From: a virus
Lineage: Duplodnaviria > Heunggongvirae > Uroviricota > Caudoviricetes
Strand: one strand, 5' to 3'
DNA length: 33,104 bases
IMG/VR virus record: IMGVR_UViG_2563366897_000003
The number at the start of each line of letters is the position of its first letter. Position 1 is the first letter of the stretch. This document shows positions 5,202-16,130 of this stretch, one piece after another. The notes beneath the pieces were generated by a model. It searched no databases, had not been told where the DNA came from, and worked only from the letters and a program-made list of their open reading frames with translations. The position numbers and the translations under genes are program-made.

Positions 5202-5460
5202 ATACAGCGAACGCCATTGGTTTAGTTGGATATTTACTGTGCCGGACAAAAACGGTTTGCGGGGAAATCTTAGTTAAGTAGAATGACTGCGGGTGCTTGA
5301 GGCTATCTGTCTCAGGCATGAACACCAAAAGGCAGATAGAGAAAAGCCCCAGTTAACATTACGCGTCCTGCAAGACGCTTAACATTAATCTGAGGCTCAA
5401 TCTATGAACGGCAAATCTAGGTTAGCCTCTTACGTGCCGAAAGGCAAGGAGAAGCAGGCT

Positions 5461-5616
5461 ATGAAGCAGCAAAAGGCGATGTTAATCGCCCTGATCGTCA
5501 TCTGTTTAACCGTCATAGTGACGGCACTGGTAACGAGGAAAGACCTCTGCGAGGTACGAATCCGAACCGGCCAGACGGAGGTCGCTGTCTTCACAGCTTA
5601 CGAACCTGAGGAGTAA
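5461..5616 (+). CDS. hok: Hok/Gef family type I toxin (HokD/RelF-like)
   Basis: MKQQKAMLIALIVICLTVIVTALVTRKDLCEVRIRTGQTEVAVFTAYEPEE is a clear Hok/Gef-family sequence; AAGGAG-like SD upstream; the track ORF starts earlier in frame at 5404 (possible leader/mok-like extension). Confidence 0.8.
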   Translation: MKQQKAMLIALIVICLTVIVTALVTRKDLCEVRIRTGQTEVAVFTAYEPEE

Positions 5617-7493: not shown

Positions 7494-8315
7494 ATGAAAC
7501 TGGAAGATTTACCGAAATACTACTCCCCAAAATCCCCTGGCCTGACCGATGCATCGGCCTCAACGTCAAAAGATGCGCTGAGTATCACTGATGTGATGGC
7601 CGCGCAGGGCATGACACAGAATCGGGCTGAGATGGGTTTTTCTGCGTTCCTGGGGAAAATGGGCATCAGTATGAATGACAGGGCGCGGGCAACAGAATTA
7701 CTGGCAGATTATGCACTCAGTCGGTGCGATCGTGTGGCGGCGTTGAGAAAACTTCCGGCAGAAATAAAACCGGTAGTGATGCGCATTATGGCTTCGTACG
7801 CTTTTGAGGATTATGCCCGCAGCGCAGCGAGTAAAAAGCAGTGCCCTTGTTGCTATGGGGAAAAATTTATTGAAAGCGTAGTTTTTACAAACAAGGTCCA
7901 GTATCCGGATGGTAAGCCACCAGTGTGGGCAAAGTGCACAAAAGGCGTGTATCCGTCTTACTGGGAAGAATGGAAAAAAGTCAGGGAGGTGGTAAAAGTT
8001 GCCTGTCCGGAGTGTGGCGGAAAGGGTGAGGTTTCCACCGCCTGTAAGGATTGCCGTGGGCGTGGTGTCGCCATTCATTGTGAAGAGTCGGTAAAACGTG
8101 GTATGCCTGTTATCAGAGACTGCCAGCGTTGTGGTGGTCGTGGCTATGAAAGACTACCATCAACGGAGGCATTTAATGCTATATGCGAGGTGACAAACCA
8201 GATAACACGCGCGTCATGGGAAAAAACAGTTAAGAAATTCTATGATGCGCTGGTGACCCGGTTTGATATTGAAGAAGCATGGGCTGAGCGGCAGTTAAAA
8301 AAGGTAACTAGGTAA
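7494..8315 (+). CDS. Q: late-gene antitermination protein Q (zinc-finger type)
   Basis: 273 aa with three CxxC pairs (CPECGGKGE, CKDCRGRG, CQRCGGRG); immediately upstream of a promoter/terminator pair, the tRNAs and the lysis genes. Confidence 0.75.
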   Translation: MKLEDLPKYYSPKSPGLTDASASTSKDALSITDVMAAQGMTQNRAEMGFSAFLGKMGISMNDRARATELLADYALSRCDRVAALRKLPAEIKPVVMRIMASYAFEDYARSAASKKQCPCCYGEKFIESVVFTNKVQYPDGKPPVWAKCTKGVYPSYWEEWKKVREVVKVACPECGGKGEVSTACKDCRGRGVAIHCEESVKRGMPVIRDCQRCGGRGYERLPSTEAFNAICEVTNQITRASWEKTVKKFYDALVTRFDIEEAWAERQLKKVTR

Positions 8316-8458: not shown

Positions 8459-8534
8459 GGCCCTTTAGCTCAGTGGTGAGAGCGAGCGACTCATAATCGC
8501 CAGGTCGCTGGTTCAAATCCAGCAAGAGCCACCA
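8459..8534 (+). tRNA. tRNA with CAU anticodon (ileX/ileZ-type tRNA-Ile2, or tRNA-Met)
   Basis: Cloverleaf readable by eye: GGCCCTT acceptor, GCTCAGTGG D-arm, CTCATAA anticodon loop (CAT), GGTTCAAATCC T-arm, encoded CCA at 8532-8534. Confidence 0.85.
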
Positions 8535-8634
8535 TCACAAACCGCCATTAGCTTATCAGGAAGAGCAGACGACACGATAACAGGGTTGTTGGTGCGGGGG
8601 CGGGTCCCCGATGGCGGTCCATTATCGGTATTCA

Positions 8635-8708
8635 GCGTTGTTAGCTCAGCCGGACAGAGCAATTGCCTTCTAAGCAATCGGTCACTGGTTCGAATCCAGT
8701 ACAGCGCG
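8635..8708 (+). tRNA. tRNA-Arg (anticodon UCU, argN/argO-like)
   Basis: GCGTTGT acceptor pairs with ACAGCGC at the 3' end; CTTCTAA anticodon loop (TCT); GGTTCGAATCC T-arm; no encoded CCA. Confidence 0.85.
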
Positions 8709-9566
8709 CTATATTCATTCTTCCAGATTCCTTCCGGCAGAGCCTTATACTGAAATATACCTGGCTCAGGATATTGTTGAAAATATTTTATGTTTGTCAA
8801 AAATAAAAGTTCTGTTAAGTATTGATTGAGTGTTTGTTATACGGTCTAATGGTTTTTTCAGCATTAAATATTTATCATTCATATGGTGTGGGTAGAGTGA
8901 ATATTGATGAGGCGTCGGGGTGTTTCATCCTTAGGCAGCGTATTGATATAGTCAATGCAGGACGAGCAAAGGCCTTCAGCCGTTTGACAGTTTTGTTCTG
9001 TACTCCTGATCGTCTTTCGGGAAGAGACGTTATTATTCTGAATAGTGATGCTATACAGAGGGTTTGCGATGAGTTCATGGTTGCTAATTCAGAATTATTT
9101 GCTCTTGTTCAGGAGTACAACAGAATAGCCAGTACCTGTGGTATGGATGAACTTCGGATTACTCATCTGGGGTAGATACATATCTGGATTATCACTTGTT
9201 ACGGTAAAAAGTGATTGCTTACTGTTTTTGTGAGTGGCATTGCAGCAGCCGGATAATGTCAGTGCTGGCTGACGGTGTGCTGGTGGCGGGTGTGGTGGTT
9301 GTTGCTTTCCCGTTGCTGAAAAAGAAAACGCCAGACTGTTAGCCGGGTATCAGTTAGCGGGAGAAATTTTTAAATACTTCACAATTCAGGCGGTTGACTG
9401 TTGTCTGGTTTGCGGGGAGTTTGTTAAAAGAAACTGGCATGGTGAATCCCCCTGTGCGGAGGGGCAATCAGCGAGTAGGTATATGGGATAATCGCGGATT
9501 CAGGTGCTGGTACTGAATTCACCGGGAGGCACCCGGCACCATGCAATGGCACATAGCGCCACTCTC

Positions 9567-9602
9567 CAGCCCCTCTCCGGAGGGGCTGTTTATATTGATT
9601 TT
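9567..9602 (+). terminator. intrinsic terminator inside the cargo island
   Basis: CAGCCCCTC-TCCG-GAGGGGCTG (9-bp stem) followed by TTTATATTGATTTT. Confidence 0.5.
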
Positions 9603-9622
9603 GTCAGATGTGAGTAAACTCC

Positions 9623-9958
9623 TTATGGACTTTGTTGTTTTAGTCCATAAGGACATATTTGCAGAGTGCAACGGTTATTAAAGCATTCATTCAATACGTT
9701 ATCTGTATTTGTAGGACATTCCTGGCTGTTTTTGATTAAATTCCAGAATGTTTTATTGAATGGTGCTACGTTGTAAATGGTTACAGGTAGCACTTTGTTA
9801 TTGAGCATGATACCTGTGTGAGTCAGTGTAAATATACTTTCAGGAGGTAAGAAAGCATCCGATTGATACCAGATTATTAATTTTATTTTACTCCATATGA
9901 CTGAAAAAGATATTCCGCATGATGGCTGGATAACTGTATCAATCACAATCCACTTCAT
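9623..9958 (-). CDS. hypothetical protein (111 aa), antisense to the late operon
   Basis: ORF track; AAGGAA SD 6-7 nt upstream of the minus-strand ATG; AT-rich codon usage; an 11-bp perfect inverted repeat (9621-9652) overlaps its stop. Confidence 0.4.
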
Positions 9959-10203
9959 TTAGTTTCCTTGTTTATGTCTTGCTGGTGATGTTCTGAAAAG
10001 TATAAATGATATTTTTGAATGTAAACCATAGAGCAGAATTATTTTTCTGATGTTGTTTATTGTTTATTTAAATGCAGGGTGGTTTATATCTCGTCTTGTA
10101 GTTTATCCATGCATATCTGCTTGATGATGAGGTTTTTATTTAAGGTATGGTTTTGTGTTTTTTCTGTATTACATGTCAGGTATTTTAAAGAATTATTTTT
10201 CAG

Positions 10204-12781: not shown

Positions 12782-12857
12782 GCCTGCGCAAGGGACCATC
12801 GGTGTGTGCCGGTGGTCTTTATATTGTTGTGAGCTTCCGGATAACGGGAGACGGGGT

Positions 12858-13073
12858 ATGTACCAGATGGAAAAAATCACAACAGGTGTGTCATACACCA
12901 CGTCAGCGGTGGGAACGGGCTACTGGTTCCTGCAGTTGCTGGACAGGGTTTCCCCGTCTCAGTGGGCGGCAATAGGCGTGCTGGGGAGTCTGCTGTTTGG
13001 GCTGCTGACGTACCTGACTAACCTGTATTTCAAAATCAAAGAGGACCGGCGTAAGGCGGCGCGGGGAGAGTAA
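12858..13073 (+). CDS. S: phage-21-type pinholin (class II holin S) with dual-start motif
   Basis: [71 protein letters not shown] closely matches S21-type pinholins; two Met codons (12858 and 12867) give the holin/antiholin dual start. Confidence 0.85.
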
Positions 13074-13077
13074 AGTG

Positions 13078-13968
13078 ATGAATAAAAAATATGAACTGGT
13101 TGTTAAGGGGATAAATAATTACGGGGATAAGGTTACTGTTACTGTGACACCGGAAGGTGACGGGCAAGCGTCGCTGTTGTTGCCAGATGTGGCGATTAGT
13201 CTTGACCGTACTGAAGGTGCCACGCTGGAGTTTTACGAAGCTGAGGCGAAAAAGCAGGCGAAGCAGTTTTTCATGGATGTTGCTGCCGGGTTATGTGAAT
13301 GGAACGAACCGTTGCCGGAAAAGCGCCCCGTAATTTTAGAGGCGCAGGATGTGTTGATAACCTACAAAGGAAAGCTACCGGGAAGAATTACTTGTTCTCT
13401 GAAGATGCCGCCGTCAACACTGCGGTCAGAAAAAGATGATGTTGAATCACGTATTGAAAAACTGGAGAGCTACGTCGTTGAGCTGAATAAGAAATGGTCG
13501 ATATTGGTGCCTTCTGGCGATGAAAAGCAGTTTGCTGCGTTTGACGATTATTGTCGGAAAGTGATGAGCAGAAATCTCGCAGAGTGTTTCAGTATTCATA
13601 ATGATAATTTCAGTGAGCTGGAATGGGAGTGTAACCGGCCATCCTTTGTTGTATCCGGTGATGCTGGGAAAATAACCATCTCAGAAAATGGGAAAGTAAC
13701 ACCTCCATCGCACCAGCACAGTGAGGAGCTCATTGAATTTGCCATTGATTACCTGAAGAACAATAAAAAGCAGGGGCTGATGAAGCGCGTTGGCCGTTGC
13801 ATGGGATATCTTCAGGTAGCCGCTGAGATTGAAGCGCTGGCCAGTGGTGCTGATAAGGATGCAATTGTGCGGGAGGCTCTTCTTCGTGATTTTAATACTC
13901 CACCCTTTAAAAAAGTGCCGGCTTACTGGCTTCATCCGGGGCTGACTTATCTTAAAGTGCGTATTTAG
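13078..13968 (+). CDS. hypothetical protein (296 aa) inserted between holin and endolysin
   Basis: ORF track 13075..13968; the ATG at 13078 has GGGGAGAG 7 nt upstream and starts 5 nt after the holin stop; no signal peptide or TM segment; no recognised domain; slightly lower GC than neighbours. Confidence 0.6.
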   Translation: MNKKYELVVKGINNYGDKVTVTVTPEGDGQASLLLPDVAISLDRTEGATLEFYEAEAKKQAKQFFMDVAAGLCEWNEPLPEKRPVILEAQDVLITYKGKLPGRITCSLKMPPSTLRSEKDDVESRIEKLESYVVELNKKWSILVPSGDEKQFAAFDDYCRKVMSRNLAECFSIHNDNFSELEWECNRPSFVVSGDAGKITISENGKVTPPSHQHSEELIEFAIDYLKNNKKQGLMKRVGRCMGYLQVAAEIEALASGADKDAIVREALLRDFNTPPFKKVPAYWLHPGLTYLKVRI

Positions 13969-14004
13969 TGGGCCAGGGACAGCGGCTGAATATTTAATAT
14001 ATCC

Positions 14005-14538
14005 ATGAACACCAAAATCAAATACGGCCTGTCGGCTGCCGTTCTGGCGCTGATTGCCGCTGGTGCGCCTGCGCCTGACATTCTCGACCAGTTTCTGGAT
14101 GAAAAGGAAGGCAACCACACCACAGCATACCGTGATGGTGCAGGTATCTGGACCATCTGCCGTGGTGCCATCATGGTGGATGGCAAACCTGTCGTTCCGG
14201 GCATGAAGTTGTCGAAGGAAAAATGCGACCGGGTTAACGCCATTGAGCGTGATAAGGCGCTGGCATGGGTGGAGAAAAACATCAGAGTGCCATTGAGTGA
14301 ACCCCAGAAAGCGGGGATCGCGTCATTCTGTCCGTACAACATTGGCCCCGGTAAGTGTTTTCCGTCGACGTTTTATAAACGAATTAATGCAGGTGATCGC
14401 AGGGGAGCGTGTGAGGCGATTCGCTGGTGGATTAAGGACGGTGGCAGAGACTGCCGTATTCGTTCAAACAACTGCTACGGTCAGGTATCCCGTCGTGACC
14501 AGGAGAGCGCGCTGGCGTGCTGGGGTATCGACAGATAA
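14005..14538 (+). CDS. R: SAR endolysin (phage lysozyme R, R21-like)
   Basis: 177 aa; N-terminal signal-anchor-release segment (LSAAVLALIAAGAPAP) followed by a lysozyme catalytic region (EGNHTTAYRDGAGIWTICRG). Confidence 0.9.
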   Translation: MNTKIKYGLSAAVLALIAAGAPAPDILDQFLDEKEGNHTTAYRDGAGIWTICRGAIMVDGKPVVPGMKLSKEKCDRVNAIERDKALAWVEKNIRVPLSEPQKAGIASFCPYNIGPGKCFPSTFYKRINAGDRRGACEAIRWWIKDGGRDCRIRSNNCYGQVSRRDQESALACWGIDR

Positions 14539-14630
14539 GCAGAATATTTTGCTGAAAAATAAGGTATGGCTACGCGGGCGGATAACACGAAATCCTGCGA
14601 ACTGGCGAAACGTAAGTGAATAAAAGTAAA

Positions 14631-14665
14631 AACCCCGTTTGTTGGCACCAAGCGGGGTTTTGTGT
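14631..14665. terminator. bidirectional intrinsic terminator between R and Rz
   Basis: CCCCGTTTG...CAAGCGGGG hairpin flanked by AAAAA upstream and TTTTGTGTTT downstream. Confidence 0.5.
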
Positions 14666-14694
14666 TTCTGACCTTGAGTAAGGCAAGGGAGAAC

Positions 14695-14877
14695 ATGGCG
14701 AAGTATAAACGAATTCTGTTGAGGTTGACTATGAAAAATGGCCTTGAACTGAAAGCGCCTGTAACTGATGACATCAGCAGAGCACTGGCTTTTGCCATTA
14801 AGTGGGTGGCGGTCGGTGTTGCTGTGTCCCCGATGCTGTATGGGCTGGCAAAACTGGTCATTGCGTTGAAATCGTGA
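14695..14877 (+). CDS. hypothetical small protein (60 aa) with hydrophobic C-terminus
   Basis: In-frame ATG inside track ORF 14662..14877; GGGAGAAC upstream; C-terminal predicted TM helix ([22 protein letters not shown]). Confidence 0.35.
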
Positions 14878-14891
14878 AGGGAGGATTAAGC

Positions 14892-15023
14892 ATGTCAGAC
14901 AAACTCATAACGCTGGCGAAGATCCTCTGTGTAATTGTCGGCATTTCATTTTCACTAATGCTGGTTGCTCTTTTTCTTTCCATGGCCTGGATGATGTTGT
15001 CTTCGTCGGGGTTGCTGGGGTGA
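14892..15023 (+). CDS. small single-TM membrane peptide (43 aa)
   Basis: AAGGGAGG SD 7 nt upstream of the ATG; [43 protein letters not shown]; stop overlaps the Rz start. Confidence 0.4.
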
Positions 15024-15493
15024 ACATAAACCGAATGCTTTCCGCGTTTATCGTTATTCTGCTGGTGGCCTGTGGTGCGCTGTGGATGGCAACAGACCAT
15101 TACCGTGATAACGCGATTACCTACAAAGCGCAGCGCGATAACAAAGCCAGTGAACTGAAGCTGGCGAACGCAACCATTACTGATATGCAGGTGCGCCAGC
15201 GCGATGTTGCTGCGCTCGATGCAAAATACTCGAGGGAATTAGCCGATGCGAGAGCTGAAAATGAAACTCTTCGCGCTGACGTTGCCGCTGGTCGTAAGCG
15301 CCTGCGGATCAACGCCACCTGTCCAGGCTCCGTGCGTGAAGCCCCCACCACCTCCGGCGTGGATAATGCAACCGGCCCCCAACTGGCAGACACCGTTACA
15401 CGGGATTATTTCACCCTCAGAGAGCGGCTGATGACGATGCACAAGCAACTGGAAGGGGCACAGGACTATATCCGCACTCAGTGCCTGAAATAA
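15020..15493 (+). CDS. Rz: Rz i-spanin
   Basis: 157 aa; N-terminal TM then [44 protein letters not shown]..., a close match to lambda Rz; start is the GTG at 15020 or the ATG at 15035. Confidence 0.85.
15261..15431 (+). CDS. Rz1: Rz1 o-spanin lipoprotein, embedded in the +1 frame of Rz
   Basis: [56 protein letters not shown]: lipobox LVVSAC and proline-rich core, very similar to lambda Rz1; lies entirely within Rz. Confidence 0.8.
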
Positions 15494-15803
15494 GTTTTGT
15501 TGATGCGCCGTATCGTCGCTATATTCCCTCATTAACAGAGACCGCAGCCCGACAGGGAGACTCCTCTGCGCGAGTGTGCGGGGATAATTAAAAACGATGC
15601 ACACCGGGTTTTTACCGCGTTAATGATTCGCGGGTTTATCCCGGTGCGATGGTGGAAGAAACAGGAAGCTGTATTACAGAAAGTGCTACTACTGTATCCC
15701 GATGCGATGTATGTAATGTGAGTCAGATAATGGCACAGGATGTGGTGATGTGGCAGTCTGGAACACAGGATATATTGTCAGAATAAGACCCGTAGGAATA
15801 AAA

Positions 15804-16130
15804 ATGAAAAGACGCCTTTTACTACTTTTTCTGTTATCTGTCCTGGCAGTGGGATGCTCGCAGCAAAAAGCTGATGAGCCCCGGCAATTAGTGACGGTGT
15901 ATCCACGATATCCGGAATATGCTGCAGCAAATTATATCAAGGGGCTGGTTGAGGTTAAGTTCGATATTGGTGCTGATGGGACTGTGACACGGATCGTTTT
16001 TCTCCGCTCAGAGCCTCATAATTTGTTTCGTGATGAAGTGGTGAAGGCCATGGCGAAATGGCGATTTGAAAAGAATCGCCCCTGTCAGGGAGTGAAGAGA
16101 CAATTTATCTTTACGCCGTCACGTCCTTGA
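15804..16130 (+). CDS. lipoprotein with a TonB C-terminal-like domain
   Basis: 108 aa from the ATG at 15804 (AGGA SD); signal peptide and lipobox LAVGCS (Ser at +2); YPRYPEYAAANYIKGLVEVKFDIGADGTVTRIVFLRSEPHNLFRDEVVKAMAKWRFE fits the TonB_C signature (YP..A....G.V.VKFD...DG.V...F..EV..AM..WR.E). Confidence 0.7.
   Translation: MKRRLLLLFLLSVLAVGCSQQKADEPRQLVTVYPRYPEYAAANYIKGLVEVKFDIGADGTVTRIVFLRSEPHNLFRDEVVKAMAKWRFEKNRPCQGVKRQFIFTPSRP

Follow-up and report, generated by a model that had tools for sequence, protein, structure and literature searches.

What is a gene of almost 300 codons doing between the pinholin gene and the signal-anchor-release (SAR) endolysin gene of a phage lysis cassette, and how unusual is it to find one there? 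This question is raised by the IMG/VR virus record IMGVR_UViG_2563366897_000003, a caudoviral stretch of 33,104 nucleotides that is called the window here, where an original prediction made from the letters of the DNA had seen a piece of unrecognised cargo starting just behind the holin stop codon. We are almost certain that the gene encodes the full-length, two-module form of the YdfR (DUF1327) family, and that it is an optional, Q-dependent late gene of the pinholin/SAR-endolysin slot, translated from a Shine-Dalgarno (SD) sequence embedded in the holin gene. For its function a role as a late adaptor acting on host RNA decay is favoured, tentatively, with control of lysis timing as a close rival.

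The open reading frame (ORF) listing gives a frame on the + strand that begins with GTG at 13075 and ends at 13968 (297 aa). The start backed by all homologues is the ATG at 13078, which gives 296 aa up to the TAG stop at 13966-13968, and the elements of the gene are as follows:

13063..13070, + strand: Shine-Dalgarno sequence GGGGAGAG, inside the 3' end (last codons) of the holin gene, serving whichever gene comes next
13078..13968, + strand: long-form ydfR-family coding sequence, 296 aa plus stop, according to the ORF, the phrog_1085 match and the RefSeq name

The holin stop codon (TAA, 13071-13073) and the ATG are separated by 4 nt, and the predicted 296-aa ORF with its own SD behind the holin stop was therefore borne out.

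Assignment to the family relies on several concordant matches. Residues 2-101 align with positions 1-88 of the 93-position Pfam profile DUF1327 (PF07041) at E = 1.5e-40, scoring 137.8 bits where the curated threshold is 25, phrog_1085 is matched over the full length of the protein (3e-189), the closest protein cluster (97% identity) has 962 members, and copies up to 99.9% identical are named 'YdfR family protein' in RefSeq, so that the earlier statement that no domain could be recognised was mistaken. DUF1327 is the YdfR family, named for a gene of the Qin prophage of Escherichia coli K-12, where the order is essQ (holin), ydfR, rrrQ (endolysin) and rzpQ, and residues 1-74 of the window protein are 46% identical to K-12 YdfR. 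The position that goes with the family, directly after a P21-type holin and before the endolysin, is the one occupied in the window, and the same holin-ydfR-endolysin layout is present in K-12, BP-4795, mEp460 and Evi. The size departs from the small single-domain protein of about 70-115 aa by which the family is also recognised, with 296 aa and an extra coiled coil and C-terminal domain. Beyond DUF1327, Pfam gave no match in the window protein or in its Salmonella homologues, and NCBIfam gave no meaningful match. The literature search found no paper on the long form and the term 'DUF1327' in one paper; ydfR otherwise appears only in tables of screens, with a 3-fold rise in the minimum inhibitory concentration of streptomycin upon over-expression and a slight down-shift in a lambda lysogen. 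The gene is thus a routine member of a family that is already catalogued; what is new is the long-form architecture and its unclassified C-terminal domain.

This architecture was defined with a structural model (AlphaFold2, AF2) and two alignments, one of the E. coli forms (A1) and one of the E. coli and the distant, Salmonella forms (A2):

13078..13302, + strand: N-terminal DUF1327 domain (N-domain), aa 1-75, Pfam PF07041, three beta-strands followed by a long helix
13303..13431, + strand: conserved linker, aa 76-118, PEKRPVILEAQDVLITYKGKLPGRIT..., alignment A1
13432..13506, + strand: short coiled coil, aa 119-143, heptad positions V121, I125, L128, V132, L135, W139 and L142
13642..13965, + strand: conserved C-terminal domain (C-domain), aa 189-296 (108 aa), three short strands and four helices

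The N-domain is acidic (isoelectric point, pI, 4.6), with a predicted local distance difference test score (pLDDT) of 65-86 over aa 1-70. The linker, which is present in the short BP-4795 form too, has no confident structure in the model (pLDDT 21-36). For the coiled coil the model gives a helix at 113-143, there are weak matches to the GCN4 and APC coiled coils, and it probably makes the protein an oligomer; a variable helical region, rich in indels in A1 and A2, follows it up to about aa 188. The C-domain is basic (pI 9.1) and is modelled with a pLDDT of 90.2 and a predicted template modelling score of 0.83. In A2 it keeps 16 residues invariant between E. coli and Salmonella (H214, I223, L226, G239, R240, L245, Q246, A248, A249, P276, K278, W284, P287, G288, Y291, L292). 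Family and fold searches with the C-domain gave no Pfam, PDB or BFVD match, and sequence-profile searches against PDB returned only coiled-coil noise. A separate observation on this domain is that, in E. coli strain 7/2 (locus L024, 1937-2827), C-domain DNA 100% identical to that of the window lies where a truncated YdfR pseudogene is annotated and the C-domain is left unannotated.

Comparison of the junction between holin (S) and endolysin (R) genes in related phages showed that the gene is an optional insert, dispensable for lysis itself, as well as what usually occupies the slot. The 933W-like phage PA28 and phage 434, which has the same type of cassette, both lack it, and it can therefore be regarded as optional and dispensable. 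PA28 has a holin 100% identical to that of the window and an endolysin 92% identical, 4 nt apart, with the R ATG at the exact position of the ydfR ATG, and in phage 434 S and R overlap; with both phages joining S directly to R, the idea of inserted cargo held up. The idea that such a gene is an oddity did not, since its K-12 namesake sits in the same slot and most of the related loci are filled with the same family. In a sample of 71 IMG/VR loci with a holin at least 97% identical to that of the window and R also present, 12 had no insert and 59 had YdfR-family modules, be they fused, split or truncated. Fourteen of these 59 combined N-domain and C-domain (13 with the middle region also), 10 had the middle region and the C-domain with no N-domain detected, and the other 35 were N-containing truncations or further variants; the slot showed no fewer than 8 distinct configurations among the IMG/VR loci. 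The original prediction had named routine homologues with a known function at this position as what would count against it: homologues are indeed routine there, while a known function for them did not emerge. Among deposited phage records (n = 50,697), the holin family was found in 434, the DUF1327 domain in 101 and the C-domain in 5. The cassette is matched in 4,244 of 5,426 complete E. coli genomes, and coverage of the S-ydfR-R stretch as a whole reaches 80% or more in 559; N-domain DNA is present in 3,158 (58%) and C-domain DNA in 787 (14.5%), part of which may carry disrupted genes.

The two modules are also found as separate genes. In loci L008-L011 the coiled coil plus C-domain (C-module) forms a gene of 185 aa that comes directly behind the holin, and the S-R interval has no DUF1327 gene; in L005-L007 the module order is reversed, a C-module gene of 213 aa being followed by a separate DUF1327 gene of 75 aa. 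Whichever module is first uses the same holin-embedded SD; the element is also present before R in PA28, before the N-module in BP-4795, Stx2_95 and K-12, and before the C-module in L005 and L008. Divergent short forms in mEp460 and Evi start 4 nt after S. The family as a whole is small: an exhaustive search of 1.84 billion representatives returned only 75 clusters, and a scan of GTDB species representatives only three loci, all of Escherichia or Shigella. The distant clusters are from Salmonella enterica, with 28-40% identity, and keep the architecture of N-domain, coiled coil and C-domain. In these Q-antiterminator-bearing lambdoid prophages the gene lies between Q/HicAB and a cassette of HP1-type holin, lysozyme and Rz, just upstream of a holin that belongs to a different family than that of the window; a scan of IMG/VR with a protein of this branch (P0185) gave no matches. 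On a divergent viral contig, a pair of DUF1327-like genes directly precedes the holin. Some long forms have an N-domain of the K-12 type; P0022, for example, joins an N-domain 81% identical to K-12 YdfR to a body like that of the window protein. Pairwise ratios of nonsynonymous to synonymous substitution rates (dN/dS) for the N-domain within E. coli are 0.6-0.9, with few sites. These findings suggest that recombination takes place at the boundary of the N-domain and that selection on it is relaxed or diversifying.

Two side observations were made on these loci. N-domain alleles are swapped between otherwise near-identical long forms, and many related E. coli and Salmonella loci have, after the ydfR-family gene, a reverse-strand ORF of 95-105 aa that is absent from the window (L002 4085-4399, L005 4902-5189, L017 5807-6124 and L106 2744-3040, all on the - strand); for the ORF in Salmonella there is a match to phrog_1853, and a copy in E. 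coli bears the annotation DUF1823.

The gene has a GC content of 46.1% and a third-position GC content of 0.465, as compared with 54-55% and 0.59-0.71 in holin, R, Rz and nanS-p. Over its C-terminal domain or third, dN/dS against six independent homologues is 0.16-0.37, with dS above 1 in some comparisons, and by this signal of purifying selection the 296-aa reading frame is judged to be real. Minus-strand ORFs at 13681-14118 and 13965-14342 were considered as genes and rejected, the + frame holding the purifying-selection signal and all the homology. A transmembrane (TM) helix was not found in the protein (maximum Kyte-Doolittle 19-residue mean, 0.75), nor was a signal peptide, and the product is therefore predicted to be soluble and cytoplasmic; the absence of a TM helix and the low GC content had both been described correctly before.

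The neighbouring features that bear on the expression of the gene are those of the lysis cassette:

12791..12820, + strand: terminator-like hairpin just 5' of the holin gene (consensus scan)
12858..13073, + strand: P21-type class II holin (pinholin), Pfam PF04971 Phage_holin_2_1 'P21 holin S', 7e-33
13969..14004, + strand: ydfR-R spacer, an AT-rich R leader with no recognisable SD
14005..14538, + strand: SAR endolysin of the RrrQ/933W-R type, Pfam Phage_lysozyme, 1e-23
15020..15493, + strand: Rz i-spanin, Pfam Phage_lysis, 2e-47
15246..15431, + strand: Rz1 o-spanin, embedded in Rz, an ORF with a lipobox

A dual-start motif in the holin (MYQMEK; M1, M4) and, read from the endolysin sequence, a Gly/Ala-rich SAR-like N-terminus and the triad E35-x8-D44-x5-T50 add to the Pfam matches, and the dual-start pinholin and SAR endolysin described initially were thus confirmed. 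Consensus scans found no promoter-like site on the + strand between 12000 and 16300, and no convincing internal promoter or terminator after the ydfR-family gene. Phage 434 has an annotated terminator at the place equivalent to the hairpin at 12791..12820, which probably insulates the lysis genes from read-through by polymerase not modified by Q. This set-up, with an SD inside the holin gene shared by the gene that follows at 4 nt, no + strand promoter found and a hairpin upstream of S, fits the expected co-expression with the lysis genes. As for RNA elements, folding of the S-ydfR junction was no better than that of shuffled sequence (z = -0.02), the ydfR-R junction had no significant structure relative to shuffled sequence (z = 0.76), and Rfam gave no match in the S-ydfR-R region.

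One consequence of the insertion concerns the endolysin. While R uses the SD inside the holin gene in insert-free cassettes, it has an AT-rich, SD-less leader in the window, and the first residues of the endolysin also differ (MNTKIKYG in the window, MSRKFRYG in PA28, locus L023, 2680-2780). Read from these leaders, the insert displaces R from the holin-coupled start and must therefore alter endolysin translation in cis, which we consider certain.

With respect to the protein itself, the function that we tentatively favour is that of a late cytoplasmic, oligomeric adaptor on host RNA decay, which would tune late transcripts. The N-domain would bind to RNA, to the membrane-bound catalytic half of RNase E, or to both, and the coiled coil and C-domain would supply an effector or second binding function; late transcripts, those of the lysis, toxin and morphogenesis genes, would as a result differ in stability or in processing, so that the protein would tune the lytic programme rather than execute it and would not be needed for lysis itself. 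Evidence in this direction comes from K-12 YdfR, residues 1-72 of which were recovered three times, as identical clones, in a two-hybrid library screen with RNase G as bait; the full-length protein interacts with Rne1-597, and Rne1-598 co-purifies with Strep-YdfR in an eluate rich in DNase-resistant nucleic acid (PMC13232886). The 46% identity between the window N-domain and K-12 YdfR spans exactly this RNase E-binding region. The K-12-type N-domain on a long form (P0022), and the existence of what would be two functional modules, fused or separate, are likewise consistent with an adaptor, as are the late, holin-coupled set-up of the gene, the predicted cytoplasmic location of its product, the architecture kept in Salmonella and the purifying selection on the C-domain.

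Several points weigh against this proposal. Over-expression of K-12 YdfR changed few transcripts and did not affect growth, and the binding was observed for the short K-12 protein only, with Rne1-597 only and not with shorter constructs, in a setting where bridging by RNA is possible (PMC13232886). The acidity of the N-domain is unusual for an RNA binder, and structure and profile searches gave no fold or motif in the C-domain pointing to an RNA-related activity. The C-module occurs without any DUF1327 module, and short forms without the C-module, so that the two-part adaptor picture is not obligatory, and some copies of the family are pseudogenes. Finally, the family shows a tight attachment to holin genes (4 nt after S in the E. 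coli phages, directly ahead of the holin in Salmonella), and this speaks just as much for a role specific to lysis. A wider version of the proposal, in which the YdfR family would be a new class of cytoplasmic regulators linking RNase E and RNA decay to the lysis schedule, with the C-domain as a new fold that has its own partner, seems unlikely to us at present.

The close rival takes that attachment at face value. Lysis-timing control was among the roles proposed initially and it is possible, if doubtful, that the protein is a cytoplasmic regulator of this kind, an analogue of P1 LydB or T4 RIII kept at a fixed ratio to the pinholin by coupling; it is as doubtful, in more specific terms, that it would bind the charged cytoplasmic C-tail of the holin or the short N-tail of the SAR endolysin and thereby delay or sharpen triggering. 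In K-12, BP-4795, Stx2_95, mEp460 and Evi, as in the window, only 4 nt lie between the holin stop and the start of a DUF1327 gene, and every S-R insert, in 59 of the 71 IMG/VR loci, has a YdfR-family module; the Salmonella homologues immediately upstream of an HP1-type holin and the pair of DUF1327-like genes before the holin of the divergent contig go in the same direction. However, the family is thereby associated with at least two unrelated holin families and at differing positions, which argues against a specific holin partner, and the same holin and endolysin alleles work without the gene in PA28. The slot between R and Rz, moreover, tolerates unrelated cargo (ant, methylase, small ORFs), and position alone is therefore weak evidence. 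There are precedents in P1 LydB, an antiholin without predicted TM domains whose gene overlaps the end of lydA (PMC9025707), and in T4 RIII, a cytoplasmic antiholin (PMC8385771); with LydB there is no similarity (hhalign probability 0.1%, E = 0.56), and homology to it was rejected on that basis. The holin tail is basic, and an N-domain with a pI of 4.6 could pair with it. A ydfR deletion of the Keio collection was envelope-leaky in a screen with chlorophenol red-beta-D-galactopyranoside, and essQ and rrrQ (ydfQ) were absent from those supplements of the study that were searched (PMC3879167), but the leakiness may stem from polarity of the kan cassette on the SAR endolysin gene that follows.

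If neither RNA decay nor lysis timing is the target, the gene might be a conflict gene, that is, a late counter-defence, superinfection-exclusion or abortive-infection factor whose domain shuffling reflects an arms race, and we regard this as improbable. The mosaicism of the slot is what one would look for in such a case (at least 8 configurations, an indel-rich middle, N-domain alleles swapped between backbones), as are the N-domain dN/dS of 0.6-0.9 within E. coli, from few sites, the narrow host range, confined to Escherichia/Shigella and Salmonella with 75 clusters in 1.84 billion representatives, and the atypical composition. On the other hand, the best PADLOC match was PbeC (E = 0.049, 9.9 bits), to the coiled coil only, with no NCBIfam match, the Salmonella and split homologues had no PADLOC matches, and an enzymatic motif was not found. 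The gene has no promoter of its own, a hairpin lies upstream of S, and ydfR is essentially silent in K-12 under standard growth (PMC13232886), all of which makes a lysogen-protecting defence role unlikely. The anti-phage function suggested at the outset thus finds no support, with no PADLOC hit to the protein as a defence system and no promoter of its own, and the same is true of a secreted virulence factor, for which a signal peptide is missing.

Least probable of all, in our opinion, is a functionless passenger, the relic of an old insertion, decaying but harmless, that travels with the lysis cassette. In its favour, truncated, split and pseudogenised copies are common, the C-domain is found in 5 of 50,697 phage records as against 434 with the holin, the gene is dispensable (PA28, 434) and over-expressed K-12 YdfR is almost without phenotype (PMC13232886). 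Against it, purifying selection acts on the C-domain (dN/dS 0.16-0.37, also where dS exceeds 1), the model of this domain is confident (pLDDT 90), architecture and 16 invariant C-domain residues are kept between E. coli and Salmonella at about 30% identity, and the intact 296-aa form makes up a 962-member cluster.

The surroundings of the cassette place it in its genomic context. Upstream are a Q antiterminator gene (7494-8315), two tRNAs, a NanS-p-type esterase gene and DUF1378 and DUF826 genes, and this part of the window is the late region of a Shiga toxin (Stx)-phage-like lambdoid prophage without stx. The slot where Stx phages hold stx, between the tRNAs (8459-8709) and the nanS-p-type esterase gene (10204), corresponds to 8459-10200 and holds here an unknown ORF at 8822-9175 (phrog_2873), the small RNA STnc100 at 9408-9597 (RF02076, 132 bits) and a 111-aa reverse-strand ORF at 9623-9958, with local GC content down to 0.34; in a neighbourhood of E. 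coli strain 7/2 with the same gene layout, a reverse-strand ORF of 111 aa occupies the corresponding place and bears the annotation anti-adapter IraM. A match to the sok antitoxin RNA of Rfam (RF01794, 112 bits) at 5291-5466 on the + strand indicates a hok/sok-type toxin-antitoxin locus in the early/replication region of the prophage. On the other side of the endolysin gene, the R-Rz slot (14539-15019), which in related phages holds ant, a DNA methylase gene or other small ORFs, contains a strong terminator-like hairpin at 14629-14661 (13 pairs and a T-run) and two small ORFs with hydrophobic C-terminal halves, at 14662-14877 (phrog_1115) and 14802-15023 (phrog_4906). Directly after Rz/Rz1, at 15750-16130 on the + strand, lies a lipoprotein-like ORF with the lipobox LAVGC and a Pfam TonB_C domain; the label of its family in PHROGs, 'Rz-like spanin', is at odds with Pfam.

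The relevance of the gene derives from the cassettes in which it is found. In nearly all Stx phages, and in many prophages of E. coli, it is a pinholin/SAR-endolysin cassette that brings about lysis and the release of toxin, and most such cassettes carry this family-specific accessory gene coupled to the holin. Should it tune lysis timing or the stability of late mRNA, then burst size, prophage induction and Shiga-toxin release would be affected, and a true link between RNase E and lysis would mean that the timing and amount of lysis and of Shiga-toxin release are set in this way in a large share of the lambdoid prophages of both E. coli and Salmonella. Studies have so far dealt with the K-12 protein, which is missing part of what characterises the family, a conserved two-module architecture, shared with Salmonella, that includes the C-domain of about 108 aa; for work on RNase E binding or lysis, the long form is therefore the one to use.

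Of the systems to which the window gene can be compared, the nearest is K-12 YdfR (b1555, P76160), with the same N-domain, the same slot and the same translational coupling to the holin; its 103 aa consist, however, of the N-domain and an unrelated 29-aa tail, without the linker, the coiled coil and the 108-aa C-terminal domain of the window protein. The morons and late cargo of lambdoid phages (stx, nanS-p, bor, ant between R and Rz) are likewise optional inserts with atypical GC content, and the window gene resembles them in being inserted between genes that are adjacent in PA28 and 434. Unlike a moron with its own promoter and terminator for expression in the prophage, it has neither; its translation is coupled to that of the holin, RNA-seq of K-12 shows ydfR to be almost silent, and the slot is filled by a single family and not by varied cargo. 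T4 Srd, phiKZ Dip and T7 gp0.7 are phage proteins that bind or modify RNase E and reshape mRNA decay during infection, and the role proposed here for the window protein as an adaptor would be akin to theirs. P1 LydB, in turn, is a non-membrane protein of a SAR-endolysin system, encoded by a late gene directly after the holin gene and coupled to it, and the window protein shares with it the absence of TM helices and a gene beside that of the holin, 4 nt away, with a shared SD. The lydA and lydB genes overlap by 4 nt (PMC9025707); LydB delays lysis experimentally, and the window protein has no sequence or profile similarity to it. T4 RIII differs in belonging to an unrelated phage type and in acting on a class III holin in lysis inhibition, and its likeness to the window protein is conceptual only, but it is a small cytoplasmic lysis-associated protein that reportedly also binds ribosomal protein S1 and affects activation of the RegB RNase (PMC8385771, PMC9409239), a link of lysis to host RNA processing that is the very combination proposed here.

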